From Rubripirellula sp. (GTDB lineage Bacteria > Planctomycetota > Planctomycetia > Pirellulales > Pirellulaceae), in assembly GCA_965216875.1 (NCBI GenBank), contig OZ244207.1:3008001-3072000 (forward strand): DNA of 64,000 nt, in the 5' to 3' direction. Position 1 is the stretch's first letter, and the number at the start of each line of letters is the position of its first letter. Position numbers and translations under genes: made by a program. The notes below the pieces were generated by a model. That model saw only the letters and a program-made list of their open reading frames with translations, searched no databases and was not told where the DNA came from. Of the stretch, positions 14,031 through 62,020 are shown one piece after another.

Positions 14031-14032
14031 CG

Positions 14033-22350: not shown

Positions 22351-22482
22351 TCGCACAACAAACTGGGCAACGTAGGCAACCCAGTGAACCCGCGTATTTG
22401 GTGTGGTTGCTAACGATTGCGCCGTCGCATACGATACCCCTCGCACGGCTAAGCCAAGCCAAGTTCACACTTGCGAGAAATC

Positions 22483-23181: not shown

Positions 23182-23819
23182 TAGACCACGAGCTTCGCAT
23201 ACTCGATCCAGAGCGGCGAATAGATTTCAGCGCTGTGGACGGTTGCCGATGCGGAGTAGACGGTCACGCGAGTGTTTTCGTCCATGGCTCGCCGAAAGGC
23301 CAACCCGGAACGACGAGTATGTGGTGCTGACGTGACCACAACCATCGTTTCGAGCTTTGGGAACTGTGCTGCAACAGCGCGAGCTTCACTCAACGACCCC
23401 ATCGACGTGGCAGGATCTGGGTCAACGGTCATGACGCTTTCGCGCGGGACACCGTAGTGCTCGAGATAGTCAATGGCGCGGCTGACGCGCGTACGACTTT
23501 CCTTCTTAACGAAATCGTAGCTCGCCTTTTGCTGCTCATTCAGCACGATGATCTTCTTGACGCGTCGCCAGTGATACAAATCGGACGCTGCTCGCAGCCG
23601 CTTGAAATAGGGCTCACCTCCGGCCATCACGTATGCGACTTCACCCGTCGCCTCGGCGTTGTGTTCGACAAGGGGCGCTGCGACCCAGGCTCGCACGGGA
23701 CGAAAAGACAAGGCGATTGAAACGATCGCCCAGGACAACAGGACGAGAACGCATCGGCGCCGCCAACGTCGCGCCACCGCACTGGGTGCACCACCGCCTG
23801 TCGATTCCCGCTCGTTCAT
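23166..23819 (-). CDS. YdcF/DUF218 family membrane-anchored protein
   Basis: N-terminal TM, VMAGG, RLRAA, SEA, VVTSAPHTRR, EYAK. Confidence 0.85.
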   Translation of the reverse strand: MNERESTGGGAPSAVARRWRRRCVLVLLSWAIVSIALSFRPVRAWVAAPLVEHNAEATGEVAYVMAGGEPYFKRLRAASDLYHWRRVKKIIVLNEQQKASYDFVKKESRTRVSRAIDYLEHYGVPRESVMTVDPDPATSMGSLSEARAVAAQFPKLETMVVVTSAPHTRRSGLAFRRAMDENTRVTVYSASATVHSAEIYSPLWIEYAKLVVYYFVA

Positions 23820-24871
23820 TCTTGCTCGCTAGAGACTTCGATATAAACATCGACTGGCAAGCCGACCGGCAGGGACATTTCCGTTTCTCGCAATTCAATC
23901 CAGACGCGCCGGCTATAGGTATCGGTCCGCTCACCCGCCCATTGACCAAATAGTTTCTTCGGAGTCATTTGCGGTTCGACTTCGACCACTTCGCCCCGCC
24001 CGAGCACGCCCTCGGCGCCATCGGAAGTGATATGAGCGGTCTGACCAACTCGAATACTCAGTGCATCATACTCATCAACTTCGGCGACCGTGCGCAGCCT
24101 CGACGTATCCGACATCACGATGAGCGAGCTGGGATCTTCGGGAGTCGTCAATTCTCCGGGCTCTGCTTCGACCGCCAGGATCTGGCCGTCACTGGGCGCT
24201 TTGATCATCGTGCGATCGAGGTTGATCTGCGCGATGCGAAGTCGCGACTCCGCTGCTCGAACCGCGGCCTTTGCAGCCAACAATTCGTCCTCGCGCGCCG
24301 GCGCCTCCATCGTTTCAAGCCGCCCCTTTGCCGCAGCGGTCAAGGCTTTGAGCGAGACCATGTTGGTATACAGGTCGTCAAGCGATTGCTGGCTGAACGC
24401 ATTGCCACTGTAGAGTTTCAGACCTCGTTTGTAGGCCTTCTCGGCCCCACTTTGACGTGCCTTGGCGGCCGCGTACTCTTGGCGGGCGGTTTCAATTTCT
24501 GATTCACGAAAACCGTTCTCGAGGCGGGTCTTGGTCGCCTCTTCACGCGCAAGCAGCGAGGCAGCCAAGTCACGTTCGCTTTCGAATCTCGCTGAGTCGA
24601 GGCTGACCAGCAGGTCGTCTTTGGAAACCCACTGGCCTTTCTCGACGTGGATCTCAGTAATCTGCTCAGCGATGCGAGCGCGCAGCTCAACTTCTTGTGT
24701 TCGTCCCTCGATCCGACCTGACGCGCGCACGACCATACTTGTTGCCGCAGAACTGGTCGTGCGAACCGGCCTTGGCGTCACGTCACCAAGCGGCAAACGC
24801 TGCTGATCGATGAACATCAGCGCAGAGCCGAAGATCACCGCCGTGATGAGGATGGTTGTGATGTGCTTCAC
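23816..24871 (-). CDS. HlyD/DevB-like membrane fusion (periplasmic adaptor) protein
   Basis: N-terminal TM, ASGRIEG, VEKGQWV, coiled coil, IKAPSDG, VDEYD, GLPVDV; GTG start overlaps the upstream stop. Confidence 0.9.
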   Translation of the reverse strand: MKHITTILITAVIFGSALMFIDQQRLPLGDVTPRPVRTTSSAATSMVVRASGRIEGRTQEVELRARIAEQITEIHVEKGQWVSKDDLLVSLDSARFESERDLAASLLAREEATKTRLENGFRESEIETARQEYAAAKARQSGAEKAYKRGLKLYSGNAFSQQSLDDLYTNMVSLKALTAAAKGRLETMEAPAREDELLAAKAAVRAAESRLRIAQINLDRTMIKAPSDGQILAVEAEPGELTTPEDPSSLIVMSDTSRLRTVAEVDEYDALSIRVGQTAHITSDGAEGVLGRGEVVEVEPQMTPKKLFGQWAGERTDTYSRRVWIELRETEMSLPVGLPVDVYIEVSSEQE

Positions 24872-25644
24872 TTGAATTGTCCGTTTTCGATTTCGCACAC
24901 GCGATCCGCGTACTTCAGAATTCGAGGGTCATGCGTCACGACAACCGTCGCCGAGTCGGTTCCATCGACGAGCTCGCGGAGCAGTTCCATGACCTCAACC
25001 CCCGACTTCCCGTCGAGCGCCGCGGTCGGCTCATCGGCCAGCAACAATTTTGGCGATGTGATCACCGCCCGCGCTAGTGCGACGCGTTGGCATTGCCCCG
25101 GGCTCATCGCCGTCGGCAGTTGTTTGCGGTGCAACTCCAACCCAACGCGCTTGAGCAACTCACCTGCTTTTTCGCGAGCGTCGGGAAGAGTCATCCCTTG
25201 AAGGGTTAGTGGAACGGCAACGTTGTCCTCTGCTGAGAGTCCCCGTATCAACTGGAATTTTTGAAACACGAAGCCAATCAGTTCACGGCGCACCTGGGTC
25301 CGCTCGGCCACTTTCAAAACGTCGACGCGACGTTCGTCGATGTAGACTTCACCCGAATCGCATTCGAGCAGACAACCGAGAATCGACAGCAGCGTGCTCT
25401 TGCCACTACCCGAGGGTCCCGAAAGAAATACGCACTCACCAGCAGCGGCCGAAAAATCGACACCATCAAGGACCCATCGTCGCTCGCCACCAATCTCGTA
25501 CGACTTACGCACGTCCGTTGCTGAGAGGATGGGCGGTAATGCCGGTTCACCCTGATCATCACAATCGCAGCTTGGTCCAAGAACAAAGGCGTTCTTCTCG
25601 GGTGGCAGTATCAGGTCGTCGCCTGTGATTGAATCGCTCATCAT
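24868..25644 (-). CDS. ABC transporter ATP-binding protein (LolD/DevA-like)
   Basis: GPSGSGKST, GFVFQ, MSPGQCQRVALARA, LADEPT, VTHD. Confidence 0.95.
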   Translation of the reverse strand: MMSDSITGDDLILPPEKNAFVLGPSCDCDDQGEPALPPILSATDVRKSYEIGGERRWVLDGVDFSAAAGECVFLSGPSGSGKSTLLSILGCLLECDSGEVYIDERRVDVLKVAERTQVRRELIGFVFQKFQLIRGLSAEDNVAVPLTLQGMTLPDAREKAGELLKRVGLELHRKQLPTAMSPGQCQRVALARAVITSPKLLLADEPTAALDGKSGVEVMELLRELVDGTDSATVVVTHDPRILKYADRVCEIENGQFK

Positions 25645-26771
25645 TAACCCTGCAATACGGAGTGAGGGTCAACGCGGCGAACCCGAAAATAGGGCAGCGC
25701 CGATGCCAAGAGGCAAATGCTGAATACCAACAAACTGCTGCCAATATAGAGTCCCATTGGAATCTCGATTGACGCTAGTGGCGTGCTAAAACAGGTCTGT
25801 ATGACGTGCGTCGCAACGATTCCGATTGCGATTCCGACACTTGCGATCAAGGACGACTGTGCAGCAAGCAGTGTAATGATCTCGCGCTCGGTGGCTCCAA
25901 TCGCCTTGAGCGTTGCGAATTCGCTGATGCGATCGAGGACCATTGCGTACAGGGTTTGCCCGACCATCACCAATCCAACCAGCAATCCCAAAAAGGTTGC
26001 GGCACCAAAACTGATTCCAAGTCCAGTCCGAGTCATCCAGAAATTAACACTGATCGATGCGTACTCGGCACTGGTCATGGCCGTCACATCATGAAGTCGA
26101 CGCTCTATTTCACTGCAAACCTGCGCCGCATCAGCTCCTGGTGCCAAACGCACCAAGAAGTACGAGGCCTTATCCGGCTCGCCGCGTGCTAAGTCGATAT
26201 GGTGGTCATAGTTTGTGAACACGTAGGGCGTCACCAAGAAGCTTAGGACACCGTACGATTTTCCCGAGACGCGAACCCGCTTGCCGTTAATCTCCCGAAC
26301 ATCACCGATTGCGGGATTGATGAGCTTGCTGTCATCACATTGGTCCACGATCACGGCATCGGGATACGTGAGTGCGTCCGCGGGACCTTCAACGATATCG
26401 TAGGCCCGCCCCAGGTCGGTCCCCTCGGTCACCCCAACCAGCATGACGCCTTCGTAGTTGCCGTTGGGAAGACTGATTTCGGAAAACTCGATGCGCATGG
26501 GTTCCGCCGCGGCCACGCCCGGAATGCTTCGCACCCGATGAATCCATCGCACAGGAATACTGTGCGGGAAGTCAACGTAATGCATACCGCGATTGCCAAC
26601 CCAAATGTCAGCATTACTCCGATCGACAAGCAGACTTGCTTTGTGGATCAGGCCGAAAAAGAGCCCGCCCTGGATGTTAACCAACACCACCGAAAAGATC
26701 ACGCCGATCAATCCGGCAACCAACTTGCCGCGATCAAAGAGCAACGTGCGTGAGGCGATGTTCCAGAGCAT
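25644..26771 (-). CDS. ABC transporter permease (FtsX/MacB-type, DevC-like)
   Basis: N-terminal TM, ADIWV periplasmic domain, EFATLKAIGA, C-terminal TMs, VDP. Confidence 0.92.
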   Translation of the reverse strand: MLWNIASRTLLFDRGKLVAGLIGVIFSVVLVNIQGGLFFGLIHKASLLVDRSNADIWVGNRGMHYVDFPHSIPVRWIHRVRSIPGVAAAEPMRIEFSEISLPNGNYEGVMLVGVTEGTDLGRAYDIVEGPADALTYPDAVIVDQCDDSKLINPAIGDVREINGKRVRVSGKSYGVLSFLVTPYVFTNYDHHIDLARGEPDKASYFLVRLAPGADAAQVCSEIERRLHDVTAMTSAEYASISVNFWMTRTGLGISFGAATFLGLLVGLVMVGQTLYAMVLDRISEFATLKAIGATEREIITLLAAQSSLIASVGIAIGIVATHVIQTCFSTPLASIEIPMGLYIGSSLLVFSICLLASALPYFRVRRVDPHSVLQG

Positions 26772-26890: not shown

Positions 26891-27919
26891 CTAAGGAATC
26901 CCTCGCACAATAGGCGGGCCGACAATTTTGGTAAGCCAAACCGGCATCTTTTGCCAAAGCTGAATCAGCCGTTGCTTACCGGAATCGTCAGGACGCATCT
27001 CTTCGGGCGATCCCTTGCGCACGTAGTATTGCCACACCGCCTCGCACGGTTTTGCCCCCCACTGAGCCTTGAATTTATAGGTTCCGCTTCCTTCACTGCT
27101 ACGCCCAAAATCAAACGTATGGCTGCCGCGTTGGATTGCCCGTTCCAACAAATAGCGATACATGAACATGTTGGCGTTGGTGCGATTGAATTCACGCAAA
27201 CAGCTAGCACTGGGAACTTCAGTCATTCCGTTCTGATGCACAAGTATGCCGCTGGCGACAGCAGTCCCCTTTTGGCTCACGACACAGATCTCGGCGTCGT
27301 CGCCAAATTCCCGGCACATGGCTTGGAACAGCCGTTTGGGAAACACGGGCGTGCCGAGATCCCGCATGTTACGCGCGAAGATAGCGTAAAAGGTGTCAAC
27401 CAATTCGATTCCTCCGAACTCATGCTCCAAGTCGTATTGGCCTGACTTTTTGATTTGACTCCGCAGCTTGGATCGATAGGACTTCATCAACGCTTCTGGA
27501 GTTTCATGCAGCGCCAAACGCATGTGCTTCTTTTCAGTCCGTTCGAAGTTGAACTTCGGGTGTTTCACCGGCGTTTCATGACGTAGTTCCAAATACCGTA
27601 CATCCAGCTCGTCAGCAAGGTCGCAGGCGTGATCGACGAGTTTCACTGCTGACTCATCATCCGTTGCCCAGGCACCGCCGGTATTGATGTAGGGGATACT
27701 GACGAGAAACCGCCCGAAGATTGGCCCAGAAACTAAGAAGAGCGGCAGGATTCCGGTGACGTTTCCCGACCGTTTGGCCTGAAGCACATAGGCGCGCTGG
27801 CGCAAGCCGTCGGCGACCGTATTGACCCAGGCCTGTGAGTGCCCCGTGAGTCTCGGCATCGTGCCATCGGCCACGTCTGAAACGCCGCATGGCCACTGAG
27901 CGGTTTCGATTTCTAGCAC
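26891..27919 (-). CDS. FemAB-related GNAT protein, PEP-CTERM/exosortase system-associated
   Basis: GILPL, LVSIPY, YLELR, RSQIKK, MRDLGTPV, FDFGRS, FKAQWG. Confidence 0.9.
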   Translation of the reverse strand: MLEIETAQWPCGVSDVADGTMPRLTGHSQAWVNTVADGLRQRAYVLQAKRSGNVTGILPLFLVSGPIFGRFLVSIPYINTGGAWATDDESAVKLVDHACDLADELDVRYLELRHETPVKHPKFNFERTEKKHMRLALHETPEALMKSYRSKLRSQIKKSGQYDLEHEFGGIELVDTFYAIFARNMRDLGTPVFPKRLFQAMCREFGDDAEICVVSQKGTAVASGILVHQNGMTEVPSASCLREFNRTNANMFMYRYLLERAIQRGSHTFDFGRSSEGSGTYKFKAQWGAKPCEAVWQYYVRKGSPEEMRPDDSGKQRLIQLWQKMPVWLTKIVGPPIVRGIP

Positions 27920-28221: not shown

Positions 28222-28980
28222 ATGACAAACCCCGCCCAGCGATCGCACCAAGCTGTGTTGCACCAGCGTTTGGCCTTGCAGACGGACCCGGATCGACGAA
28301 TCGACTATCGGTTGGCCGCGACACACCTCGACCTCTACGGCGCCTTCGAACTCCTTCAACGCCGCTACTCGATCGCCGGGCTCTCGAAGCCCAACATGCC
28401 CCTTCGAGTTGAACCATTCCACCTGTGGCGCCAGTCTCAAGTCTTCGTTGCCGTCAGCGGCGCGACGGTTGTTGGTTGCATGACATTGATTCGACCAGGC
28501 CATCGCGACGGGTTGCCATCCATCAAAATGAACAAAGCGGTTGAGCCTGCACTGCCCAAAGGTGCTGTCCTTGGTGAAGTCACTTCATTGGCAATCGACA
28601 CAGACAACCACTGCCGAACCTCGGAAGTCTTTTTGCGGCTGACCGAGCTGATGCAGATGTTTGCACTTCGGCATGGGGTCAACCATGCGGCAGCAGTCGT
28701 GCACCCCAAACACGCTCGAATGTACCAACGCGCACTCGGTTTCAAGGTGATTGGCCAAACCGTTCCCTGCGATCGAGTCGCCGGAAGGCCTGGTGTGACA
28801 CTGATTCGCCAGATCAGTCATTCCATGGGAGGACGATTGAACTGGCAACAAAGGTTTTCACCAAGCCGAGCGTGTCAGATGGATTTGTCGCCGCGACCAA
28901 TGACCGAGCGGCAGAAACGGTTCTTTTCGTTCTACATGACCAATCGACCGTCTCGATACGAATACACCAAGGCGGCTTAA
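28222..28980 (+). CDS. FeeM-like N-acyl amino acid synthase (GNAT fold)
   Basis: AFELLQRRY, VFVA..VVGCMTL, GLP, GEVTSLAID (putative catalytic Glu), VHPKHARMY..LGF; start uncertain. Confidence 0.75.
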   Translation: MTNPAQRSHQAVLHQRLALQTDPDRRIDYRLAATHLDLYGAFELLQRRYSIAGLSKPNMPLRVEPFHLWRQSQVFVAVSGATVVGCMTLIRPGHRDGLPSIKMNKAVEPALPKGAVLGEVTSLAIDTDNHCRTSEVFLRLTELMQMFALRHGVNHAAAVVHPKHARMYQRALGFKVIGQTVPCDRVAGRPGVTLIRQISHSMGGRLNWQQRFSPSRACQMDLSPRPMTERQKRFFSFYMTNRPSRYEYTKAA

Positions 28981-28994
28981 GAAGCTCGCCCCAT

Positions 28995-30101
28995 TCAAGC
29001 GTCGACCAATACCGAAGCAATCCGGCACGCCGCACGCCCGTCCCAAAGCTCTGGGCAACTTCCCTTTTTGTAGTCGCCACTTAAAACGGCGCTCAGGTGG
29101 TGCCGCAATTTCTCGGCCGAGTTACCAATCAATGTACTTGTCCCTTCATCGCACGTGATTGGACGTTCGGTGTTCTCACGCATTGTCAAACACGGGACGC
29201 CGAGAGCCGTCGATTCCTCCTGCAAACCTCCCGAGTCCGTAACAATCACTTTGGCTTGCGACGTCAAACAAAGAAAATCGTTGTAGCCCAACGGATCGAG
29301 CAGGCGCAGGTTTGGCGCATCGCTGATCAACGACTGAAGCTGGTGATGGTCAATCCGTGCTCGCGTTCGCGGGTGAATCGGGAAAACCAGCGGCATTGAC
29401 TTCGATACATCGACCAGCACTTCCAGCAGCGCCCTCAAGGTATGTGGAGCATCGACGTTCGACGGTCGATGCAGGGTCACCACACCGTAGGCCCCTGGCT
29501 GAAGCGAAAGTTCGCCCAAAGTTGGCCGGCTCTTTGCTTGTTCTACCTGCGTCATCAACGTGTCGATCATGACATTGCCGACAAGATGAATCCGTGATGA
29601 ATCATGGCCTTCATTCTTCAGGTTCTCTGCCCCGGCCGGCTCGCTGCATAACAGGAGGTCAGAAATCGAATCGGTGACAAGGCGATTGATCTCTTCCGGC
29701 ATTCGTCTGTCGAAACTTCGAAGCCCCGCTTCAACATGAGCCACCGAGATATTGAGCTTTGCAGCAGCGATGGCGGCAGCCATCGTCGAGTTCACGTCGC
29801 CGACAACAATCATCCGCTCTACGGGCTCACCCGACGCCGCAGCAGCTCCCAAAAACTCTTCAATCGCAACCATGACGTCTGAGGTCTGCTTCGCGTGTGA
29901 CCCAGATCCGACCCCCAATGATAGGTCCGGACGTCGAATCCCCAACTCTTCGAAAAAAACGTCCGAAAGGTTGCGATCGTAGTGCTGTCCCGTATGCACG
30001 AGCGTGGTTCGCAGCTGTGGCACCTGATCGAGCTCACGCAAGATGGGCGCAATTTTCATGAAATTCGGTCGCGCACCGGCGACAATCGCAAAACGCTTCA
30101 T
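28995..30101 (-). CDS. wecB: UDP-N-acetylglucosamine 2-epimerase (non-hydrolysing)
   Basis: GARPNFMK, HTGQHYD, VGDVNS, HVEAGLRS, PEEINR, TDSGGLQEE, ERP. Confidence 0.96.
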   Translation of the reverse strand: MKRFAIVAGARPNFMKIAPILRELDQVPQLRTTLVHTGQHYDRNLSDVFFEELGIRRPDLSLGVGSGSHAKQTSDVMVAIEEFLGAAAASGEPVERMIVVGDVNSTMAAAIAAAKLNISVAHVEAGLRSFDRRMPEEINRLVTDSISDLLLCSEPAGAENLKNEGHDSSRIHLVGNVMIDTLMTQVEQAKSRPTLGELSLQPGAYGVVTLHRPSNVDAPHTLRALLEVLVDVSKSMPLVFPIHPRTRARIDHHQLQSLISDAPNLRLLDPLGYNDFLCLTSQAKVIVTDSGGLQEESTALGVPCLTMRENTERPITCDEGTSTLIGNSAEKLRHHLSAVLSGDYKKGSCPELWDGRAACRIASVLVDA

Positions 30102-30559
30102 AGATGCTGATGGGTGGAGGTCACACACGTAGATCGAGTGCGACCAGTTTGCCTTGGTCCAACAAGAAAAGGAAGGGACCAGGATGATCACCTCAGTCCT
30201 CTTTTGGCAGCTAATTCACGAAATTGTTCCACACAGTTCGGCCTTGCTGGCAAATCGCCCGTTTCATCCGCCAGGACCGCGCCAGGGAACAACATGTCTA
30301 GGTTCAGGGGCGCGTTTTTTGGTAACTCTCGATCCTAATTCAGGCCGTTATTGACCAGCAAACATTCGCTTGTGACAGCGTTGTGGGGTTGCTGACTAAT
30401 TGTCGCAGCCACCCCAGCAGGCAGAACCTGCAAAACCGGACCGGCACTCCCGTGAATACAGATCGGATGCTTGGTTCTCGTCGACACGCCCCAATTTCGT
30501 TGGACCGAGCGTCCTAAGCTTTCGTGACTCGGTCAAAACGACAATTCTCGAGAGTAACG

Positions 30560-33445
30560 ATGTCAGCGCACGGAAATTGCCAATCCAAATGTCAACAGTG
30601 CCTCCTCCCCGGCGCAGTTCCTGGAGCCAACCTGGACGCTCAATCGGTCTGCCAGCTCTGCACGACCGATACGACTCAGTCGAAGGCTGAAGCCGAACAC
30701 CGGCGGCTGGACTACAAACGAGACTTGGAAGCGACTCTCGAGAATATTCGCGGCCAGGGGGAATACGATTGCCTGGTCAATCTCAGCGGCGGCAAAGACA
30801 GTTGCCTGCTCCTTCACAAGCTCAAGAAAGAGTACGGGTTGAACGTACTCGCATTCACCACCGACATGAATATTCCTGATGTCGCGTGGAAGAACATCAA
30901 TCGCACCATTGAATTGCTGGACGTGCCTTTGGTGACGTTTCGGCCTCCGGTTGAGTTCTACAAAAAGATGTTTCGGTTTCTGTTGGCCAACCAGGAATCA
31001 CGCGGGGCCGTGCGAACCGTTTGCTACATTTGCGCGCCATTGTTCGAAAGCTACTCCATCCGCTTGGCAGTTCAAAAGAACATCCCACTCATCGCAGCTG
31101 GCTATGCTCCCGGCCAACCCGAACCTGATCGCATGGAGTACGAGTTCTCTCGCAAACTCTTGTGCGAACAAGACTGGACACCACCAGAGCTTGTCGAGTC
31201 GGGTCTATTCTCCGAGCAAGAACTTTCGCTCTTTTGGAACCCGCTGAGCTACCCGGAAGGAACACAGTTTCCTCGATACGTCGCACCGTTCCACGCATGG
31301 GACTACAGCCAAGATGAAGCGATGGATCTCGTCGTGAAGCTAGGCTTGATCAAGAACAAGAAGAGCGCCAGCCCGATACACAGCAATTGCCCAGTCAATT
31401 GGTTGCTGATGTATTCCGACCTAAAACACCTCGGCTTCAATCCTTACGCCCCCGAGTTCGCCAAACTTGTCAGGGAAGGCAAAGCGCAACGTCGCTACTG
31501 GCGCATCATGGGTCCGATCGTCGACACGATGATCCGTCAAAAGGTAATGCTGGGGCGAAATGTTAGTAAGTCACTTCAGTGGCTTGGCATGGACGAAAAG
31601 GAACTCGCAATCACGCGAGAAAGCCAAGGAGCTGAGTACAGCGAACAAATCACTCGTTCAGCCCAACCCCAGGTCATCGGCTGGGATCAAGTGAGTGAAA
31701 AACGCCAAGTTGAACCTAAGACAACCAGCAAGGAAGACCCAAACACAACGGTCGCACTCCTTCGCCACAAATTGCGTAACGCCCCCGACGCCGTAGCCAT
31801 CGGTCACCGTGTCGATGACGAATGGGTCACACTTTCTTGGCGGCAATACACTGCCCGCACACTCAAGCTCGCGGCAGAGCTTCAAGAACTTGGCGTCAAC
31901 AAAGGCGATTGCGTTGCGGTCTATGGCAAATCGGATGCTGGCTGGAGTATCACCGAAAGTGCGATTCACGCAATTGGCGGAACCGTCGTCGGAATCGACG
32001 TCAACGCATCGACTGAAGCGTGCCGTGATATCTTGGACCGCACTTCAACCACAACCATGGTCGTTGTCGGCGATTGCCCCGATGAGATTCAATCGCTGAC
32101 CACAATCACTCGACTGAGGATCAATCCCGCCGGCCATTTCACGAGTGCAAATGCGACTCAAGTTCCCACATGGAACGAGATGCCCGAAGTCAACGGCGAC
32201 GACATTGCAACCATCATCTTCACCTCAGGGACAACGGGTAACCCGAAAGGGCTCAGCTACAGCCACAAACAAATCATGGTGGCAGTTGAAGAGATGAATC
32301 GAGAATTCACGCTGGTCGAACCGGGTGACACGACCCTGTGCTGGCTTCCGATGAGCCACCTCTTCCAACGCATGATGAACTTGGTCGCCATGCGCCAAGA
32401 CGCGCAAATCTATTTTGAACCAGAGCCGAAACTGGTCGTCAAAGCAGCGGGAGAAGTATCGCCATCGGTCATGTTTGCTGTACCGCGGTTCCTCGAAAAA
32501 CTTGCAGAGGGACTCGACGCCTTTATCCAACGTCAACCGGCGCCTCTTCGCAGCTTGATTGAAAAGGCAATGGCCGCAACGGACGAAACCGACAGTGTCA
32601 TCAAACGACGAATCCGTGGCATGGTCGCCAACAAAGCCCAACAACTGCTTGGTGGCAAGCTGAAGTATTTCGTGAGCGGTTCGGCTCCTTTGTCCGCCGA
32701 TGTTGCAAAGAAACTCGAACGGATGGGCTGGGAAATCCTCGAAGCCTATGGCGTCAGCGAAAACGTCGTGCCGATGTCGGCCAACCGACCTGGCCAATCC
32801 AAACTGGGAACGGTTGGGAAACCGCTTCCTTCGAACGAAATTCGAATCGATGCCGATGGAGAGATCAAAGTTCGCGGGCCTGGTTGCATTGAAACCTATT
32901 TCGGCGAACACGATCGCCTGCTTGATGATGACGGTTTTCTATCAACAGGCGACATGGGCTACTTCGACGACGAGGGAAATCTTGTCATCGATGGACGGAA
33001 AGACAGCCGCCTAAAGACGTCGACTGGACGCAAAATCTTTCCCGAGCAGGTCGAGCGCGTCTATCAACAGAGTCGCATGATCTCAGACATGATGGTCACT
33101 GGGCATGGAAAGAAATTCATCGTTGCATTGATCGTTCCTAGTGAGGAATTTATCGATCAATGCTTGAACCTGATGCCCGTGGACGCCACGCGAGAGGAAG
33201 CTCTTCGAAGTGAGGCAGCCCGCCTATTGATGCAGGAAGAGCTCTCTACTCTCGAGCACGAACTCGAATCGCATGAGCGTGTCGCTGACTTCCAATTGCT
33301 TGACCGAGAGTTCAGCGCCGAGGAAGGTGAGTTAACGGCAAGCCTCAAGAAACGCCGCCGAGAAATTGAACGAAATCACTCAGGCGCGCTGTCTGGAATG
33401 TTTGCCGGCCAGAGTAACGCCACTGTCGCGGGGTCGCACGCATGA
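30560..33445 (+). CDS. Fusion: N-type ATP-pyrophosphatase (WbpG/N-acetyl-sugar amidotransferase-like) plus long-chain acyl-CoA synthetase-like AMP-binding domain
   Basis: N-terminal CxxC..CxxC, YDCLVNLSGGKDS, CYIC; C-terminal FTSGTTGNPKG, WLPMSH, VPRFLEK, SGSAPL, EAYGVSE, GTVG, TGDMG, GRK, GELTASLK. Confidence 0.85.
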   Translation: MSAHGNCQSKCQQCLLPGAVPGANLDAQSVCQLCTTDTTQSKAEAEHRRLDYKRDLEATLENIRGQGEYDCLVNLSGGKDSCLLLHKLKKEYGLNVLAFTTDMNIPDVAWKNINRTIELLDVPLVTFRPPVEFYKKMFRFLLANQESRGAVRTVCYICAPLFESYSIRLAVQKNIPLIAAGYAPGQPEPDRMEYEFSRKLLCEQDWTPPELVESGLFSEQELSLFWNPLSYPEGTQFPRYVAPFHAWDYSQDEAMDLVVKLGLIKNKKSASPIHSNCPVNWLLMYSDLKHLGFNPYAPEFAKLVREGKAQRRYWRIMGPIVDTMIRQKVMLGRNVSKSLQWLGMDEKELAITRESQGAEYSEQITRSAQPQVIGWDQVSEKRQVEPKTTSKEDPNTTVALLRHKLRNAPDAVAIGHRVDDEWVTLSWRQYTARTLKLAAELQELGVNKGDCVAVYGKSDAGWSITESAIHAIGGTVVGIDVNASTEACRDILDRTSTTTMVVVGDCPDEIQSLTTITRLRINPAGHFTSANATQVPTWNEMPEVNGDDIATIIFTSGTTGNPKGLSYSHKQIMVAVEEMNREFTLVEPGDTTLCWLPMSHLFQRMMNLVAMRQDAQIYFEPEPKLVVKAAGEVSPSVMFAVPRFLEKLAEGLDAFIQRQPAPLRSLIEKAMAATDETDSVIKRRIRGMVANKAQQLLGGKLKYFVSGSAPLSADVAKKLERMGWEILEAYGVSENVVPMSANRPGQSKLGTVGKPLPSNEIRIDADGEIKVRGPGCIETYFGEHDRLLDDDGFLSTGDMGYFDDEGNLVIDGRKDSRLKTSTGRKIFPEQVERVYQQSRMISDMMVTGHGKKFIVALIVPSEEFIDQCLNLMPVDATREEALRSEAARLLMQEELSTLEHELESHERVADFQLLDREFSAEEGELTASLKKRRREIERNHSGALSGMFAGQSNATVAGSHA

Positions 33446-34590
33446 GCAAGCCGACAGAATACATCTTCGTAACCGGAGCAACCGGAGTGGTTGGCAGCGC
33501 CGTCATTGCCGAGCTCTTGATGCGTCCTGATGTTCACGTCACCGCGTTGATCCGAGGCGAATCCGACGATGAGGTCCAGCGTCGCGGTGACGCGCTCCTT
33601 CAGTCGATCGATCGTCACACTCCAGGGTATGCCGCGCGGTTCCAGGTGGTGCGTGGTGACATCACCAAGGCAAACCTTGGACTCAGTGAAAACTCAATGG
33701 CCTCGGTCGCCGCACAAACAACACGAATCGTTCACAGTGCGGGCAAAGTCAAGCTGAATCAGTCAATTGCGGAAGCAAGACAGCACGCGATCTTTCCTGC
33801 TGAGCAAGTGATTTCACTCGCGAAGCGTTGTGGACATCTCAAGAAGATTGATGTGCTTAGCACGATCGGTGTCGCGGGAAAAATGGAAGGCAATGTTCCT
33901 GAGAGCCGTCTCACGCATGAACGAGAATTCCACAACACGTACGAGCAATCAAAAGCTGAAGCCGAAGAACTCTATTGGCAGCAAGCCGCCAATGGTATGC
34001 CACTGAGTATCCATCGCCCCAGCATGGTTGTCGGCGACTCGAAAACCGGTTGGGTCCTGCAGCATCAGGTCTTTTACTACCTTTGCGATTTCTTGAGCGG
34101 ACAGCGGACGTTCGGCATTTTGCCGCGTTTCAATTCTCAAATGCTCGACATCGTTCCGGTCGATTACGTCAGCCGATGCATCACAGCGTCTCTGTTTGAT
34201 TCCGAATCCGTTGGCAAGGTCTTCCATCTGTGTAGTGGCCCCATCGATGAACTGAGGATCACGCATCTGAGAGCGACCATTCAAAACGCATACACCTCGA
34301 TCGGCGCACAATGCCGAAACGGTCTCGCGCTTCCCAAAGAAGTTTTTGCAGGAATCGCGTGGCTGCTAAGTCGTCTCGGCCCAAAAGGCCTGCGCAAGCC
34401 AGCCAAGACCGTTCCCTTTTTCCTCGCCTACCTTGGCAGGCGTCAAGTTTTCGAAAGCCAGATGACCCAAAACTGGTTTCGGCGCTTCGATATCACCCTA
34501 CCCAAACCCAGCGACTACCTCGATCGGATCGTGACGACCTATGCAAAGCAGAGCCGGTCAACTCGAGCGACGCAAGGATTACAATCATGA
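33442..34590 (+). CDS. Extended SDR, fatty acyl/thioester reductase-like (NAD_binding_4)
   Basis: VTGATGVVG, RGDIT..LGL, IVHSA, NTYEQSKAEAE, RPSMVVG, DIVPVDYV; ATGA coupling to the upstream gene. Confidence 0.88.
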   Translation: MSKPTEYIFVTGATGVVGSAVIAELLMRPDVHVTALIRGESDDEVQRRGDALLQSIDRHTPGYAARFQVVRGDITKANLGLSENSMASVAAQTTRIVHSAGKVKLNQSIAEARQHAIFPAEQVISLAKRCGHLKKIDVLSTIGVAGKMEGNVPESRLTHEREFHNTYEQSKAEAEELYWQQAANGMPLSIHRPSMVVGDSKTGWVLQHQVFYYLCDFLSGQRTFGILPRFNSQMLDIVPVDYVSRCITASLFDSESVGKVFHLCSGPIDELRITHLRATIQNAYTSIGAQCRNGLALPKEVFAGIAWLLSRLGPKGLRKPAKTVPFFLAYLGRRQVFESQMTQNWFRRFDITLPKPSDYLDRIVTTYAKQSRSTRATQGLQS

Positions 34591-36320
34591 ACGCCTCAAT
34601 TTCCCATCCGCACATTGACGCACTCGCGAAAATCGTTGGCCTTGAGTATGTCGACGTCTCCGAGCAAGGCCGCGAGTATCATGCCAAAGGACTGATCCCA
34701 AGGCACTGCCGATGCCAAATGATTGTGCGTCCCGACAACGCGGGCGAAGTTGCTTCTGTCGTCAAATACGCAGATAAAAACGGGCTGAAGGTGTGGGCCT
34801 ATAGCACTGGACGCAACTGGGGATATGGCACGACTCAATCCCTTGATGAAGATTCGATCGTACTGCTGCTCGATCGAATGAATCGAATCATTGAAGTCAA
34901 CGAGGAAATGGCCTACGCCGTTCTCGAGCCTGGAGTCACTCAGGAACAACTCAACAATTATCTAAAGCAAAACAATATCAAGCTTTGGATGGACTGCACA
35001 GATTCAACTCCTAAAGGCAGCGTCATCGGTAACGCGCTCGAACGTGGTGTTGGGTACACTCCCTACGGAGACCATTTTGGCCAACTTTGCGGCATGGACG
35101 TCGTGATGGCGAATGGCGACGCGGTTCAAATGGGCGGATGCCAACCGGGATGCCACACATTCCATACGCACAAATGGGGTACAGGACCATTCCTCGACGG
35201 CGTCTTCTCACAATCGAATCTCGGTGTGGTCACCAAGGCCGGCATCTGGCTGATGCCAGAACCGGAAGAATTCAACTTCATGGCGGTCGAGCTCAAGAAC
35301 GAGCAAGACTTGCCGCGACTCATCAACCACGTCCGAGAACTCGCCCTCGCGGGAACAATTGGCAACGTTCACTGCTTCAACCCCTTCCTTCTCCTCAGCG
35401 CGCGCATTCAATACCCGTTTGACCGACGTGGCGATCGAACGCATTTGAACGACGAGGACATTCGCCAACTCGCCAAAGAAAACCACATCGCTCCTTACTC
35501 GGTCGTATGCGGAATCTACGGTACTAAAGAAGAAGCAGCAGCCCACCGCAAACAGGTCAAAAAGAAACTCGGCTCCTATTGCCGTTTGCTGTTCGCAACC
35601 GACCGCCGAATCGCATTCGTCGGCAAACTCTGCGACTTCCTGCTATCCAAAAAGCCACCTTATCCATTGCATCACAAGGTCGTTGCTTGGCTCACGCGCA
35701 AGTTCATTTATCCAGGTTCGCCCCATGCGTTGAGCCTAGTGCCACGCGTTGCCGGATACCACAAAGGGATTCCTGACGAATTCGTTGTCAGCGCCGCCTA
35801 CTTCAAACGTCGCGGTCCACGGCCGGAATCGATTGACCCGATTCGCGACGATTGCGGCTTGCTTTGGCTCGCTCCGATCCTGCCAGCATCGAGCGATCAT
35901 GTGGAAAAGCTTATGTCAGCCATCAAACCGATCTACGACAAGCACGGTTTCGAGTTTCCGCTTTCGATCATCATGCTGAACCCGCGTACGCTTATCTTTG
36001 CTCTGCCGATGTTCTTTGACAAAAGCGACCCTAGCGAATGCCAGCGGGTCAAAGAACTGTACGAAGAAGTCATCACGACGACTTCGGACATGGGGTATCA
36101 GCAGTACCGAACCGGAACCATGTACATGGACCGAATCCTGGACCAAAACCCAGGCCACCGCGACTTGGTTCGAAGCCTCAAGTCAACACTCGACCCGAAC
36201 AACACGCTCGCCCCCGGCAAGTACGGGACCACGCGTGATCAGACGGAAACTGCCGTTGCTCCCCCGATCGTTGCGCCAACCACAATGGCCGTCGATTCGC
36301 AGAATACGCCCATCGCGTAG
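34587..36320 (+). CDS. FAD-linked oxidase of the p-cresol methylhydroxylase/vanillyl-alcohol oxidase family
   Basis: STGRNWGYG, EPGVT, GSVIGNALERGVGYTPYGDH, GPFLDGVFSQSNLGVVTK, YR...DPNNTLAPGK; ATGA coupling. Confidence 0.9.
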   Translation: MNASISHPHIDALAKIVGLEYVDVSEQGREYHAKGLIPRHCRCQMIVRPDNAGEVASVVKYADKNGLKVWAYSTGRNWGYGTTQSLDEDSIVLLLDRMNRIIEVNEEMAYAVLEPGVTQEQLNNYLKQNNIKLWMDCTDSTPKGSVIGNALERGVGYTPYGDHFGQLCGMDVVMANGDAVQMGGCQPGCHTFHTHKWGTGPFLDGVFSQSNLGVVTKAGIWLMPEPEEFNFMAVELKNEQDLPRLINHVRELALAGTIGNVHCFNPFLLLSARIQYPFDRRGDRTHLNDEDIRQLAKENHIAPYSVVCGIYGTKEEAAAHRKQVKKKLGSYCRLLFATDRRIAFVGKLCDFLLSKKPPYPLHHKVVAWLTRKFIYPGSPHALSLVPRVAGYHKGIPDEFVVSAAYFKRRGPRPESIDPIRDDCGLLWLAPILPASSDHVEKLMSAIKPIYDKHGFEFPLSIIMLNPRTLIFALPMFFDKSDPSECQRVKELYEEVITTTSDMGYQQYRTGTMYMDRILDQNPGHRDLVRSLKSTLDPNNTLAPGKYGTTRDQTETAVAPPIVAPTTMAVDSQNTPIA

Positions 36321-36325
36321 GTACC

Positions 36326-37231
36326 ATGATTCAACTTGCCTCGACAGTTTTGAACTACCTGCCTCTCGCGATTGGCCACTGTACCAGCACGCAGAGACTC
36401 GACCGAACTCCCGAACCAACCGCAGAAATGGACTCGGACGCGAGTGTCGAGCAATATGACCGCGCGTGGCAGACGGAACTTGGCCTAGCCTGGGCTCTTG
36501 GCTTGAAAATGATTCATCAATCAGGAGTCGAATTGCATGAAGCGAACGCGTTGGACATTGCCTGCGGTCCTGGCCGCTTCACGTCGGCGCTTGCCAACCT
36601 GTTCAAGGCCAGACGCACCGTCGGTCTCGATCTTTCTGAAACGATGATCGCGCGGGCGCGTAGCAATCAATTGGAGTCACATAACGACTCGCTCGAATTC
36701 GTTGTTGGCAACGCTTTGGAACTTGGCGACTTCGACGACGATGAATTCCATTGCGTTACCTTCAACCAAGGTGCGCACCATTTCGATACTCAAGACCAGG
36801 TAACGGCAGTCCTCGCACAGATGGACCGCGTCTGTTCGCCCGATGGTATCGTACTCGCTACGGACCTTGTACGCCTAAGCAACCAGGCGGTTACCGACCG
36901 CTACATCGGTGTCACCAGCGTTGACTACGAGCGTCGCAAACTTGGCGACTTCAAAAACGATTTCGCCAACTCGATGTTCGCGGCATGGACACCCGATGAG
37001 CTTCATCGCTGCATCCCAAACGATTCCAAACGCAATTGGTACCATCTTGTGCCACACCTCTTGCCAACCATTCAGGTGATCGTCGGAGTTCCCAAGAGCC
37101 ACCGCCATTGGAAACAAAACGGTGATACGCCATGGCAGCAAGCTGACGCCACCAACTACATCGCCCCTCATTTGAAAGCAAAGTGGCAATTGCTCAACGC
37201 GTCCGTCGCGATGGCTCGAAGCCTAAAATGA
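36326..37231 (+). CDS. Class I SAM-dependent methyltransferase
   Basis: RTPEP..MD, LDIACGPG, GLDLSETM, GNAL, HHF, DLVR. Confidence 0.9.
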   Translation: MIQLASTVLNYLPLAIGHCTSTQRLDRTPEPTAEMDSDASVEQYDRAWQTELGLAWALGLKMIHQSGVELHEANALDIACGPGRFTSALANLFKARRTVGLDLSETMIARARSNQLESHNDSLEFVVGNALELGDFDDDEFHCVTFNQGAHHFDTQDQVTAVLAQMDRVCSPDGIVLATDLVRLSNQAVTDRYIGVTSVDYERRKLGDFKNDFANSMFAAWTPDELHRCIPNDSKRNWYHLVPHLLPTIQVIVGVPKSHRHWKQNGDTPWQQADATNYIAPHLKAKWQLLNASVAMARSLK

Positions 37232-37335
37232 GGTTCACCAAATTGAACTTTGCGGTTTAGGCAGAATTCGCTGGATTCCGCGTTTGTGACGGTCGAATCA
37301 GTTGTGAGGAAGGAGTCCTGCCAACGGGGGTCGGC

Positions 37336-38934
37336 ATGCCACGAATATTATTGGTTCTTTTCTCGCTCGTCGTTGTCTCAACGTCGCCAAGCGAAGAATT
37401 TGCAGTTGTCTCTGACCAAACGAAAGTCGAGGAGCAATACGCACTCCAGCTCGACGACTGCGTTGCCATTGCGATCCGAAACCAACCGGTCTTGCGAATC
37501 AAGAACGAAGACACACACATCGCCAGGGAACAGGTCGATGTCGCTCGTTCCTACTACTTCCCGCAAGTCGACGCAAACGCTCGCTTCACAAACATTGACC
37601 AAGTCCGGTCATTTGACATCGAAGGATTCTTTGACGGCCCCGTCGGTGATGTCTTTAGCGATGCAGCGGCATTCTTTCAAATCGCGCGTCAACTCAACTC
37701 CACCGCCGCACTCAACGCGCTCGACAATCCGACAACGCCAATCTTTCCTGGCGGACCAACTTTCGAGTCGGTCAAGCAGCAGGCCGCCGGAACCGTTCCA
37801 GATCGCATTCGCGTTCCCGTGTTGGGCGAAGCCTTCCTCAACACTCAAGTTCGTTTGGTGCAGCCGCTTTGGACAGCGGGCCGAATACGCTTCCGGGTCG
37901 ACCAAGCACGGTACGGAGTGAAATTCGCTCGCCTAGCCGAGACCCGCACGCGTCAAGAAGTCGAATTCAACGTTACTCGTGCGTACTTGGCCGTACTGCT
38001 GAGTCGCCACTTGCGAACGATCGTCGAAGACGCGCAAGAGAAAACAGATTTTCTATTGGATGCGACCCGCGACCTCGTCGAAGGCCAAGGATCAAAACAA
38101 CTGACCCAAGCGGAGGTCTATCAGGTAGAATCCGCCGATCGCTTCTTCAAATCTCAGATGCCTCGCTTGCGCGCTGCTGAGTTGCGAGCGGTCGCGGCAC
38201 TCTATTTGGCGATGGGGCTTTCACAAGCCAGCGGCCTCGAAGTAGCCAACGAGCAATTGGGATTCTTTCAGGATGTTGGCACGGTCGACGAAGCAATCGC
38301 CACAGGCTTATCGCATCGGCCGGAAGTCCATCAGGCTGCTGTAGGCACGCGTGTGGCAGGGCTCGAATACCGCTTGGCAAAAGCGGAGTTCTTTCCAGAA
38401 GTGGTCGCTTTTGGGCAATTCACCAGCATCCATGACGATCGCAATTTTGCAAATCCTAATGACAGCAGCGAATGGGCGGGCGGTGTTGCGGCTTCGATCG
38501 ACATAAGTACGGGCGGACGGCGTAAAGCCGAAAAACGACTGGCAACACACAAGGCCACTAAAGCGCGAGCGACACTTCAACAGGTCAAACTGCTTGTCGA
38601 ACAGCAGGTGCGAGATGCCTTCCTCGAACTCGAGGGCGCCCGCGACACGGCTTACGTGGGCCAGGACGTCATCGACTCGGTCGAGAAAACGCTCCTCTGG
38701 CTCGACAAGAAAGAGACGCACCGCGTCGTAGCGATTGACGACCGACTTCATTTCCTGAACAAGGTCAATACGATCGTATTGGAATCAAAAGTAAAAACAG
38801 AGTATTATCAATCGCTGTTTGCCTATAACCTTGCGATCGCTCGCTTGAGACTTGCAACGGGGTACTCCGATGCGTTTGATTACCAGCCTCTTCCTGATCT
38901 CCATTCTGACCGTAACATCAACGCTGCGCAATGA
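37336..38934 (+). CDS. TolC-family outer membrane efflux protein
   Basis: Signal peptide, LDDCVAIA, ARSYYFPQV, QPLWTAG, HRPEV, AEFFPEV, YNLAIARL. Confidence 0.9.
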   Translation: MPRILLVLFSLVVVSTSPSEEFAVVSDQTKVEEQYALQLDDCVAIAIRNQPVLRIKNEDTHIAREQVDVARSYYFPQVDANARFTNIDQVRSFDIEGFFDGPVGDVFSDAAAFFQIARQLNSTAALNALDNPTTPIFPGGPTFESVKQQAAGTVPDRIRVPVLGEAFLNTQVRLVQPLWTAGRIRFRVDQARYGVKFARLAETRTRQEVEFNVTRAYLAVLLSRHLRTIVEDAQEKTDFLLDATRDLVEGQGSKQLTQAEVYQVESADRFFKSQMPRLRAAELRAVAALYLAMGLSQASGLEVANEQLGFFQDVGTVDEAIATGLSHRPEVHQAAVGTRVAGLEYRLAKAEFFPEVVAFGQFTSIHDDRNFANPNDSSEWAGGVAASIDISTGGRRKAEKRLATHKATKARATLQQVKLLVEQQVRDAFLELEGARDTAYVGQDVIDSVEKTLLWLDKKETHRVVAIDDRLHFLNKVNTIVLESKVKTEYYQSLFAYNLAIARLRLATGYSDAFDYQPLPDLHSDRNINAAQ

Positions 38935-39811
38935 CGCTATCGTTCGCGCCGAAGACGATGTCATACGCTGCGCGTTTTGCCCCTCGGTCATGCAGGGACG
39001 CGACATCAAACTGGTCGAAAGTGTGACGCGCATTTTCACCAAGAAGTTATCCGAGCAGACTCCTGGAATCACCTTCGAGCCTGTCTTCCCTGAAAAGGGT
39101 GATCTCGACATCGTTGCCAGCAATCTCCAAACCGGCAATGACTATGAACTCGCGGTCGTTTGGGGAATCGAATACGGCCTGCTAAAGGAAACGGTCAAAG
39201 ACCTGGAGGTCATCTGCGTCGGGTCGACGATGAAAGTGTTGCTTCCAACCTCTTCGATCATCGTTCGGAATCCAATCTTGCCGATCGCAAACCACACTGA
39301 CAAGAATCCATTCCGCGTTCATCTGATCGACGGCGGCTCGATGATCGCCGAGATGCACTTTAAGCAATTGGAAGTTGCTTACGGCGACAAGGTCCGCCGA
39401 GCTGAGAAACCTGAGTACGGTGCAGCGCGACAGGTGGGTGACCTAATCGACGGCATTCTCAACGAGGACTTTGATGGGCTCATCATCGATGAATACAATT
39501 TGCTTGCTCTGCAACAAGACTTCCCCCAGCTTCTTCAAGGTTGTGCTGTCAGCTCAGACTGGGGAAATGTAAAACCAGCGCCGACCTTCCCCCATCCGGC
39601 TCTCATCGGCCGCCGCTCAATTGTTGAGGATCGCTCAAACGGTTCCTGGCAAGCGATCTCAAGCCACTTGTTTGAGGTCATGAATAAAACGCGAGCAGGC
39701 GAGCGGTTTCGGGAAGGATGGTATGCTCAACAAATCGTTCCGCCGTCAGAATCGTACGACAAACAAGTGACCGAAAAGCTCAACCTTTACCGGCCTCTGA
39801 TCTCATTCTAG
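38870..39811 (+). CDS. Secreted protein, possibly PhnD/phosphonate-binding-like periplasmic binding fold
   Basis: Signal peptide; SSIIVR and PTFPHPALI resemble PhnD-family patterns; weak similarity. Confidence 0.5.
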   Translation: MRLITSLFLISILTVTSTLRNDAIVRAEDDVIRCAFCPSVMQGRDIKLVESVTRIFTKKLSEQTPGITFEPVFPEKGDLDIVASNLQTGNDYELAVVWGIEYGLLKETVKDLEVICVGSTMKVLLPTSSIIVRNPILPIANHTDKNPFRVHLIDGGSMIAEMHFKQLEVAYGDKVRRAEKPEYGAARQVGDLIDGILNEDFDGLIIDEYNLLALQQDFPQLLQGCAVSSDWGNVKPAPTFPHPALIGRRSIVEDRSNGSWQAISSHLFEVMNKTRAGERFREGWYAQQIVPPSESYDKQVTEKLNLYRPLISF

Positions 39812-44379: not shown

Positions 44380-44451
44380 CGGCGGACCCCAGAACAATAA
44401 GACCAACGCTCAGTATAGCGCGTCCTTATCCTTTTTTCCTGCCAGCGCATC

Positions 44452-45410: not shown

Positions 45411-45580
45411 CAATCAGTTTCCAGACTCAATGGTGAACAAATCCCCTCATTCGGGGCGACCCAAAACACATTTGGCGTGGCTGCGTGAACGAAGCAGCAT
45501 CTGTTACCGATATTGTTGAGACTTGTAACAGTTCGCAACGATTATTGGGCGCGAAGCCTCCTGTATGGCACAGACCCTTT

Positions 45581-61998: not shown

Positions 61999-62020
61999 TC
62001 TGCTGGTGACTGCTATCCGC

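Follow-up and report, generated by a model that had tools for sequence, protein, structure and literature searches.

Organization of the gene cluster

The window analyzed in this study is a stretch of 64,000 nucleotides from the genome of Rubripirellula sp. (contig OZ244207.1, positions 3,008,001 to 3,072,000). Its subject is a gene cluster with a predicted FeeM-family N-acyl amino acid synthase and, beyond one gene on the opposite strand, an operon that opens with a PP-loop ATP-pyrophosphatase domain fused to an acyl ligase. Open reading frames (ORFs) of the window were searched against Pfam and NCBIfam, and 47 of them were included in the Pfam scan. A sequence-only reading of the same DNA had described a FeeM-like GNAT gene followed, past wecB, by a tightly packed run of ligase fusion, reductase, flavoprotein, methyltransferase, TolC and secreted protein genes. 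The ORF list and the Pfam and NCBIfam scans found all of these genes where that reading had placed them. The six genes of the run lie on the forward strand in tight succession from position 30524 (or 30560, depending on the start codon of the fusion). Both ATGA overlaps that it had reported were seen on direct reading of the letters, at 33442-33445 (ligase stop and reductase start) and at 34587-34590 (reductase and flavoprotein). A scan for promoters and terminators was uninformative, with 3 promoter-like sites found against 6.0 expected.

The FeeM-family synthase

The gene at 28222..28980 (forward strand), whose ORF could start earlier at a GTG at 28024, matched the FeeM family of N-acyl amino acid synthases (PF21926) with 105.1 bits against a cut-off of 27, over model positions 2-155 of 158. 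The match was repeated in a genome-wide search with 105.8 bits. Used alone as a query against solved structures, the window synthase gave no match at E values up to 1. A profile made of the window synthase and 8 homologues that adjoin PP-loop genes matched FeeM (2g0b) with an E value of 4e-23 over residues 15-185 of 198. In the alignment the window synthase has GEV where FeeM has AEV in its LAEV stretch, the acidic residue of which we take to be the catalytic Glu of FeeM. These family and structure matches group the GNAT protein with FeeM and not with ordinary acetyltransferases, as the sequence-only reading had expected, and synthesis of acyl amino acids is its predicted activity. A genome search gave no match for a TIGR03694-type synthase in this genome.

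The PP-loop domain of the fusion

The fusion gene occupies 30524-33445 on the forward strand and encodes 973 amino acids; the database gene call of 961 amino acids puts its ATG start at 30560. Its first ~390 residues (30560..31720) form a PP-loop ATP-pyrophosphatase domain resembling N-acetyl sugar amidotransferase (NASAT), with an SGGKDS motif and a CxxC...GxCxxC zinc motif, and residues ~22-195 match the WbuX model TIGR03573. The NASAT cut-off of this model, 203.2 bits, was missed by the window domain (99.8 bits) and also by the full-length homologue of G091, another genome of the phylum (116.1 bits). Analysis of 39 PP-loop sequences revealed that SGGKDS (S76-S81) and the tetracysteine C11, C14, C31 and C34 are invariant. 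NASAT enzymes carry the tetracysteine motif CXXCXn[GN]XCXXC together with a PP-loop of the form SGGxDS (PMC10607449). The structure model of the domain (pLDDT 88.7) found its best Foldseek match in the Legionella NASAT 8wex_B (E 1.1e-12, TM 0.57, 336 columns), and the next matches were TtuA/NcsA thiolases with TM values of 0.34-0.36. One copy of the PP-loop gene was found in the genome.

The NASAT partners WbuY and WbuZ are, we take it, HisH/HisF-like proteins that supply ammonia. In scans that covered ORFs of about 120 amino acids and longer, neither a glutamine amidotransferase nor a HisF-type domain turned up in the window ORFs or in 120 neighbouring ORFs of related loci. The domain thus resembles NASAT in its motifs and in its modelled fold and is not filed as NASAT, because it scores below the family cut-off and comes without the NASAT partners.

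Three further cysteines, C155, C158 and C277 (a CxxC plus C), do not vary among the 39 family sequences, nor in relatives with only 25-29% identity from Lachnospiraceae and deltaproteobacterial metagenome-assembled genomes (MAGs). Their spacing in the sequence resembles that of the iron-sulfur ligands of TtuA-type [4Fe-4S] thiolases. These cysteines open another reading, in which the PP-loop enzyme would be an iron-sulfur protein of the TtuA/NcsA kind that turns the N-acyl amide into a thioamide, which would then close on the reduced carboxyl carbon to give a thiazoline or thiazole lipid. The three residues and the place of the TtuA/NcsA thiolases as second-best fold matches point that way, and so does a class V aminotransferase/cysteine-desulfurase-type gene directly upstream of the FeeM gene in G091 (locus L029, 13039-14496 of G091:C116), which may bear on a sulfur or an amine step. 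However, the TtuA/NcsA fold match is weak beside that of NASAT, the extra cysteines may bind a second zinc, and the desulfurase-type gene was present in that locus only, with none among the 120 other neighbouring ORFs scanned. Sulfur insertion is on this evidence improbable.

The ligase domain and the reductase

The second part of the fusion (31721..33445) is an AMP-forming ligase of the ACSL/FadD11 kind. Its AMP-binding domain (206 bits) and AMP-binding_C_3 domain together span fusion residues 414-877, and coverage of the FadD11 model at positions 13-583 of 585 indicates a full-length ligase. The Pfam and NCBIfam scans found no PP-binding (carrier) domain in the ligase, and a carrier gene would not fit into the short gaps of the operon, so that the reductase is assumed to act on a CoA thioester. 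A carrier protein was likewise not seen among the 120 neighbouring ORFs, within the same size range. The reductase gene (33442..34590, forward strand) encodes an SDR protein of the thioester or acyl-CoA reductase type with an NAD_binding_4 domain (169.5 bits), which is the 'male sterility' domain of fatty acyl reductases. It scored 132.7 bits with TIGR01746, below the cut-off of 213, and contains the motifs TGATGVVG (TGxxGxxG) and YEQSK (YxxxK).

The flavoprotein and the methyltransferase

Analysis of the gene at 34587..36320 (forward strand; FAD_binding_4, PF01565, 97.5 bits) placed its product in the 4-phenol oxidising PCMH/VAO group, with the corresponding predicted activity. Comparison with solved structures gave E values of 7.6e-83 for PDB 9fge, 4.4e-79 for PCMH (1dii) and about 1e-64 for VAO. 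The window protein and each of the 17 homologues from related loci retain the residues aligned to Y95 and Y473-R474, the phenolate-binding residues of PCMH. The stretch around the equivalent of PCMH Tyr384 gave no alignment. The PCMH/VAO assignment of the sequence-only reading thus stood, on close family matches and on the retained Tyr and Tyr-Arg. No cytochrome c domain was found by Pfam among the scanned window ORFs. The flavoprotein was also considered as an alkyl-DHAP synthase working with the fatty acyl reductase in ether lipid synthesis, and this candidate was rejected since AGPS matched with 3.5e-06 against 1e-79 to 1e-83 for PCMH/VAO.

The next gene (36326..37231, forward strand) encodes a class I S-adenosylmethionine methyltransferase of the UbiE kind, with matches to Methyltransf_25, Methyltransf_11, Methyltransf_31 and Ubie_methyltran. 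Comparable methyltransferase genes adjoin VAO or reductase genes in the related loci L059 and L110.

Conservation of the gene set across genomes

Conservation of the module was analyzed over 85 related loci, made up of 80 metagenome contigs kept of 153 confirmed and the loci L034-L038. The counts rest on direct homologue searches, the loci are non-independent samples, and the metagenome contigs are short and absences in them carry little weight. Of the 42 loci that extend 2 kb or more downstream of the PP-loop gene, 39 had a ligase homologue following it, and a reductase homologue was present in 32 of the 34 loci with at least 3.3 kb. Among the 20 well-flanked loci (at least 4 kb on both sides), 12 had a FeeM-type synthase and five a PF13444/TIGR03694-type one; 14 had at least one of the two types, and nine had a VAO homologue. 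The gene set recurs beyond chance and in other phyla, and this co-occurrence in distant relatives supports the sequence-only reading. The PP-loop enzyme, the ligase and the reductase are the conserved core of the module, not add-ons. That reading had regarded the amidotransferase and the reductase as extra genes, and in this it was mistaken: they belong to the most conserved part. The methyltransferase and TolC are local or occasional additions.

Comparison of gene order showed that in G091, in both loci of a further genome of the phylum, G355, and in L035-L038 the PP-loop gene has a FeeM-type gene directly upstream. In L034 the two genes are separated by devCAB. The order in G091 is class V aminotransferase, FeeM (132.5 bits), PP-loop, ligase and reductase, and in G355:C59 it is FeeM-like, PP-loop, ligase and reductase; at G355:C79 a two-domain FeeM protein accompanies the PP-loop gene, and ligase and reductase are missing. 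The loci L034-L038, from two Planctomycetota MAGs and three Pseudomonadota/Burkholderiales MAGs, share the same order, and the PP-loop and ligase genes are fused in L035. In L100, L103 and L120 the synthase nearby is an exosortase-associated acyltransferase that matches TIGR03694 (cut-off 112 bits) with 148-212 bits; its gene holds the slot directly upstream of the PP-loop gene in L100 and L103. In these three loci the synthase has been replaced by a non-orthologous enzyme of the same function.

Fusion of the PP-loop and ligase parts was found in 7 full-length clusters, the window's included, among the best 120 of 267 matches, while the remainder match the ligase part only. Outside the fused forms, the PP-loop and ligase are encoded by neighbouring genes. 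The stand-alone PP-loop proteins of ~370 amino acids form a large and highly conserved family, for which the candidates scored included 1013 matches at E<=1e-5. The 120 homologues listed share 58-74% identity with the window domain, and none of them has a Pfam domain or a functional name. Within the phylum, five of 401 sampled genomes (the genome of the window included) had a match at E<=1e-40, and close matches were found in this genome, G091 and G355 only. No match was obtained in the two genomes of the same family and the one genome of the same order that were searched. This sparse distribution makes the module patchy within the phylum.

The recurrent neighbours of the module are PEP-CTERM proteins, TPR proteins, sigma-54 activators and GAF histidine kinases, together with UbiE-like methyltransferases (beside VAO or reductase genes), parts of MacB-type ABC exporters and LolA-like, DUF1302 and MMPL lipid-transport genes. 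A P450 and a GT1 glycosyltransferase occur in some related loci.

An unnamed family of ~290 amino acids was observed directly upstream of the PP-loop gene in L049 (3002-3874), L059 (7980-8936) and L070 (1330-2181), and beside the ligase gene in L067 (9140-10009). It may be a third type of acyltransferase, because a synthase holds that position in other loci. No Pfam or NCBIfam match was found for it, and its profile-profile alignment with FeeM was not significant (probability 1.3%). The locus at G355:C79 (L032) encodes two proteins of ~750-800 amino acids with two FeeM-like domains each, at 2178-4535 and 9519-11786, and the gene for one of them immediately precedes the PP-loop gene, with neither a ligase nor a reductase gene nearby.

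The gene between the synthase and the fusion, at 28995..30191 on the reverse strand, encodes the UDP-GlcNAc 2-epimerase WecB (TIGR00236, 298 bits against a cut-off of 210), an exopolysaccharide (EPS) gene. Its position suggests a different role for the PP-loop enzyme, namely that the NASAT-like domain amidinates an N-acetyl sugar from WecB while the ligase and the reductase prepare an acyl substituent or attach it to the polymer. The nearest named family and fold are indeed those of N-acetyl sugar amidotransferase, wecB sits between the FeeM and fusion genes within an EPS island, and L036, L038 and L084 likewise have wecB and EPS export genes beside the module. On the other hand, a wecB homologue was present in just 3 of the 85 related loci and the window wecB lies on the strand opposite to the module, the PP-loop domain scores below the NASAT cut-off, and the 120 neighbouring ORFs scanned included no partner of the WbuY/WbuZ type. 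The constant partners of the PP-loop gene are instead a lipid-type ligase, a reductase, synthases and a phenol oxidase. Decoration of the polymer is thus highly improbable, and wecB is probably outside the lipid module.

Export genes and the end of the operon

Upstream of the synthase gene the reverse strand encodes the parts of a MacB-type tripartite pump: an HlyD/DevB-like membrane-fusion protein (23816..24898; HlyD_3, HlyD_D23), a DevA/MacB-like ABC ATPase (24868..25644; ABC_tran) and a DevC-like permease of the FtsX/MacB type (25644..26771; FtsX and MacB_PCD). All three miss the equivalog cut-offs for the DevBCA-HgdD (TolC) glycolipid exporter (DevB TIGR02971, 103 bits against 129; DevA TIGR02982, 211.9 against 295.8; DevC TIGR01185, 99.6 against 290), and the assignment to a MacB-type pump stands at the family level. 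The devCAB genes that lie between the FeeM and PP-loop genes of L034 show identities of 36%, 49% and 54% to the window DevB, DevA and DevC, respectively. The TolC-family outer-membrane channel is encoded within the operon at 37336..38934 on the forward strand (OEP, 112 bits; TIGR01844, 94 bits, below the cut-off of 225), and direct search found no homologue of it in the 85 related loci. The export proposed by the sequence-only reading is supported in that L034 marks an exporter as part of the set, and is not supported for TolC as a regular member.

The last gene of the run (38870..39811, forward strand) encodes a secreted protein with a hydrophobic N-terminus and no match in Pfam or NCBIfam. 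Its Atlas features score 0.95 to clusters of PF12974 (PhnD/SsuA-type binding proteins), which is a lead only, and it possibly has the fold of that type. The search of the 85 related loci gave no homologue, and membership of the secreted protein in the module is doubtful. The operon end is converged upon by a reverse-strand gene (39808-44406) for a 1532-amino-acid protein with a Ser/Thr kinase domain and an nSTAND1 NTPase.

Proposed pathway

Our analysis makes it quite likely that the module is a tailoring pathway for N-acyl aromatic amino acids. The fuller statement has about an even chance of being right: that the window holds a complete copy of a widespread, conserved and uncharacterised lipo-amino-acid tailoring set of PEP-CTERM/exosortase loci, which would turn N-acyl-tyrosine into a reduced, amide-modified, oxidised, methylated and exported lipid. 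The specific order of steps given below, ring closure included, is put forward tentatively, as a possible scheme and no firmer than that.

In this scheme tyrosine would first be N-acylated with a fatty chain by the FeeM-family synthase. The ACSL-like ligase would then activate the carboxyl group of N-acyl-tyrosine as a CoA thioester, and the reductase would convert it to an aldehyde or an alcohol. The NASAT-like PP-loop domain would adenylate the oxygen of the N-acyl amide, as is thought for its sugar-modifying relatives. That oxygen could be displaced by ammonia, giving an amidine, or, as we judge likelier, by the new oxygen function of the same molecule, giving a 2-alkyl-4-(4-hydroxybenzyl) azoline or azole. 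The PCMH/VAO flavoprotein would oxidise the benzylic carbon by way of a quinone methide, after which a methyl group would be added by the methyltransferase, and the DevBCA-like ABC pump would, with TolC, export the product.

An N-acyl amino acid is the predicted substrate because only such a compound offers both an N-acyl amide, the target of NASAT, and a carboxylate of the long-chain type, the target of ACSL enzymes; tyrosine is the predicted amino acid because a phenol oxidase is present. Ring closure is favoured because no ammonia-supplying partner was found and because the PP-loop domain is fused or adjacent to the enzymes that would create the reduced carboxyl function. It is favoured also because CongE and OzmP, PP-loop ATP pyrophosphatases with SGGKDS, are proposed to activate an amide oxygen for closure of an oxazole by an oxygen of the same molecule (PMC4504003). 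They share the SGGKDS motif with the window PP-loop domain and differ in that their substrates are intermediates bound to an assembly line. NASAT itself (WbuX/WbpG, TIGR03573, PDB 8wex) shares with the window domain the SGGKDS motif, the zinc tetracysteine, the fold and a substrate with an N-acyl amide. The window domain differs from it in its sub-cut-off score, its place in a separate and highly conserved branch, its lipid-enzyme partners in place of sugar-nucleotide genes, and the absence of a glutaminase partner from the ORFs scanned.

The sequence-only reading had proposed that the cluster acylates, oxidises, methylates and exports a tyrosine-derived lipid. The families of synthase, oxidase and exporter and their co-occurrence support this in part, with the reservation that the methyltransferase and TolC are not part of the core.

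Comparison with known systems

A FeeM synthase with a FeeG oxidase was reportedly described in the fee cluster of soil environmental DNA, which makes long-chain N-acyl tyrosine derivatives, by Brady, Chao and Clardy in 2002. We take FeeG to be of the VAO/PCMH type, and the likeness to the window lies in a FeeM-family synthase beside a flavoprotein oxidase for the 4-hydroxyphenyl part. The window synthase is different in being tied to a NASAT-like PP-loop domain, an ACSL-like ligase and a reductase, none of which, to our knowledge, occurs in fee. FeeG is reported to carry out oxidative decarboxylation of N-acyl-tyrosine to an enamide (PMC8762209), which requires the carboxyl group that the window pathway is predicted to reduce. 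Both families named by the sequence-only reading, FeeM and a PCMH-related flavoprotein, are present, but with a reduced carboxyl group the flavoprotein cannot perform the decarboxylation reported for FeeG.

The presence of both FeeM and a VAO/PCMH-type flavoprotein also allows a pathway closer to fee, in which N-acyl-tyrosine made by FeeM would be decarboxylated by the flavoprotein in the manner of FeeG or CndG to an N-acyl 4-hydroxystyryl enamide. Here a free fatty acid would be the substrate of ligase and reductase, giving acyl-CoA, aldehyde or alcohol, and a terminal amide or amidine would come from the PP-loop enzyme. The reported activity of FeeG agrees with this, and the ligase is nearest to long-chain fatty-acid CoA ligases and the reductase has the domain of fatty acyl reductases. 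Such a pathway leaves unexplained why the PP-loop part is fused or adjacent to the ligase and why it follows right after the synthase gene. Moreover, the VAO gene occurs in fewer than half of the well-flanked loci while ligase and reductase are near-constant, and no gene for the use of a fatty aldehyde or alcohol was found. Overall, we consider this pathway unlikely.

Clusters of the tyz, oxz and stieleriacine type combine a synthase of N-acyl amino acids (NAS; NasY) with a ThiF-family adenylating cyclase, a nitroreductase desaturase and a methyltransferase (PMC12479983; see also PMC10404671 and bioRxiv 10.1101/2020.06.11.147165). The Pfam scan of 47 window ORFs gave neither a ThiF nor a nitroreductase domain, and the likeness to stieleriacine clusters suggested by the sequence-only reading was not borne out by this comparison of gene content. 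The shared logic consists of a synthase-made N-acyl aromatic amino acid, an ATP-using adenylating enzyme, desaturation or oxidation of the side chain, and methylation. The window differs in using an unrelated PP-loop enzyme in place of the ThiF-like one and a VAO/PCMH flavoprotein in place of the nitroreductase, and it has a ligase and a reductase in addition. A link to PEP-CTERM loci is noted for Stieleria as well (PMC7293339).

No published description of this enzyme set was found in the accessible portions of the literature on N-acyl amino acid synthases with PEP-CTERM or thioester reductase, and the literature on N-acetyl sugar amidotransferase, judged by title, contained none on lipids.

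Returning to the reduced and ring-closed N-acyl-tyrosine, several points weigh against it. Every chemical step is one that we infer. The PP-loop proteins score 99.8-116 bits where the NASAT cut-off is 203, and their chemistry may differ; the invariant C155, C158 and C277 keep a thioamide or thiazole outcome among the candidates. Free ammonia could serve an amidotransferase, so that the missing glutaminase is not decisive for ring closure. Among the well-flanked loci, 6 of 20 have no recognised synthase and 11 of 20 no VAO gene, and neither ligase nor reductase accompanies the PP-loop gene of L097 or that of G355:C79. A free fatty acid could instead be the substrate of the ligase and reductase, and VAO enzymes of the FeeG/CndG type require the carboxyl group that the scheme removes (PMC8762209). 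The amino acid specificity of the synthase we infer solely from the flavoprotein, and conservation together with the core is poor for TolC, the methyltransferase and the secreted protein.

The PEP-CTERM/exosortase setting and neighbouring genes

The region is a PEP-CTERM/exosortase exopolysaccharide island, as the sequence-only reading had held. A PEP-CTERM sorting-domain protein is encoded at 22471..23181 on the forward strand (TIGR02595, 23.1 bits against a cut-off of 16; PF07589, 20.3 bits, just below the cut-off of 20.7) and a further PEP-CTERM protein at 44502-45413 (PF07589 above the cut-off). The gene at 26891..27919 (reverse strand) encodes a FemAB-family protein associated with the XrtA/PEP-CTERM system, a marker of this context (TIGR03019, 322.6 bits against a cut-off of 260.35). 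Many glycosyltransferases and polysaccharide-modifying genes follow from 49.5 kb on. An exosortase gene lies ~20 kb past the window end on the same 8.26-Mb contig (G000:C1:3091380-3092384; TIGR02602, 128.2 bits against a cut-off of 105.55), with the XrtA-specific model below its cut-off (136.9 against 208). Exosortase, cargo and system-associated genes are thus found in proximity. Synthases associated with PEP-CTERM/exosortase systems (TIGR03694) were reportedly described by Craig, Cherry and Brady in 2011; the genomic setting is common to both, and the window's own synthases are of the FeeM type.

The locus of the exosortase (L130, G000:C1:3091380-3099480, ~20-27 kb past the window end) also encodes an exosortase-dependent XDP1/SdrD-like surface protein of 1294 amino acids, a second FeeM-family protein, a patatin-like lipase and two proteins resembling cyclopropane-fatty-acid synthase. 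From this content the island bears additional lipid enzymes.

Other genes of the window were observed on the reverse strand. A family 2 glycosyltransferase at 49517-50766 appears as two overlapping ORFs of 207 amino acids (N-terminal GT2 domain) and 223 amino acids (Glyco_trans_2_3), and may be a frameshifted or split gene. A heparinase II/III-like protein adjoins an AT3-SGNH acyltransferase at 57881-62058, within the polysaccharide gene block. Upstream of the island, 5661-16254 encodes a [NiFe] hydrogenase with iron-sulfur and NAD-binding subunits, together with hypB, hypF, hypD, hypE and a maturation protease.

Significance of the module

The core of PP-loop enzyme, ligase and reductase is conserved across phyla and common in environmental metagenomes, and the window presents it in a closed genome as a full tailoring set alongside synthases of this kind. 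The operon is defined and clonable, with a length of 9 kb, and lends itself to product discovery. The predicted chemistry, which combines carboxyl reduction with ATP-dependent amide activation, would be new for lipo-amino acids and would give a function to a large unnamed branch of PP-loop enzymes.

A further suggestion, which we regard as a long shot, is that the module makes the partner molecule of exosortase, a reduced amidine or azoline N-acyl-tyrosine lipid that would act as acceptor or anchor for PEP-CTERM proteins or as primer of their polymer. If true, an exosortase-partner lipid would explain why two unrelated synthase families and a tailoring set travel with exosortase loci across phyla. 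The module thereby offers a testable lead on why lipid synthases accompany exosortase systems.

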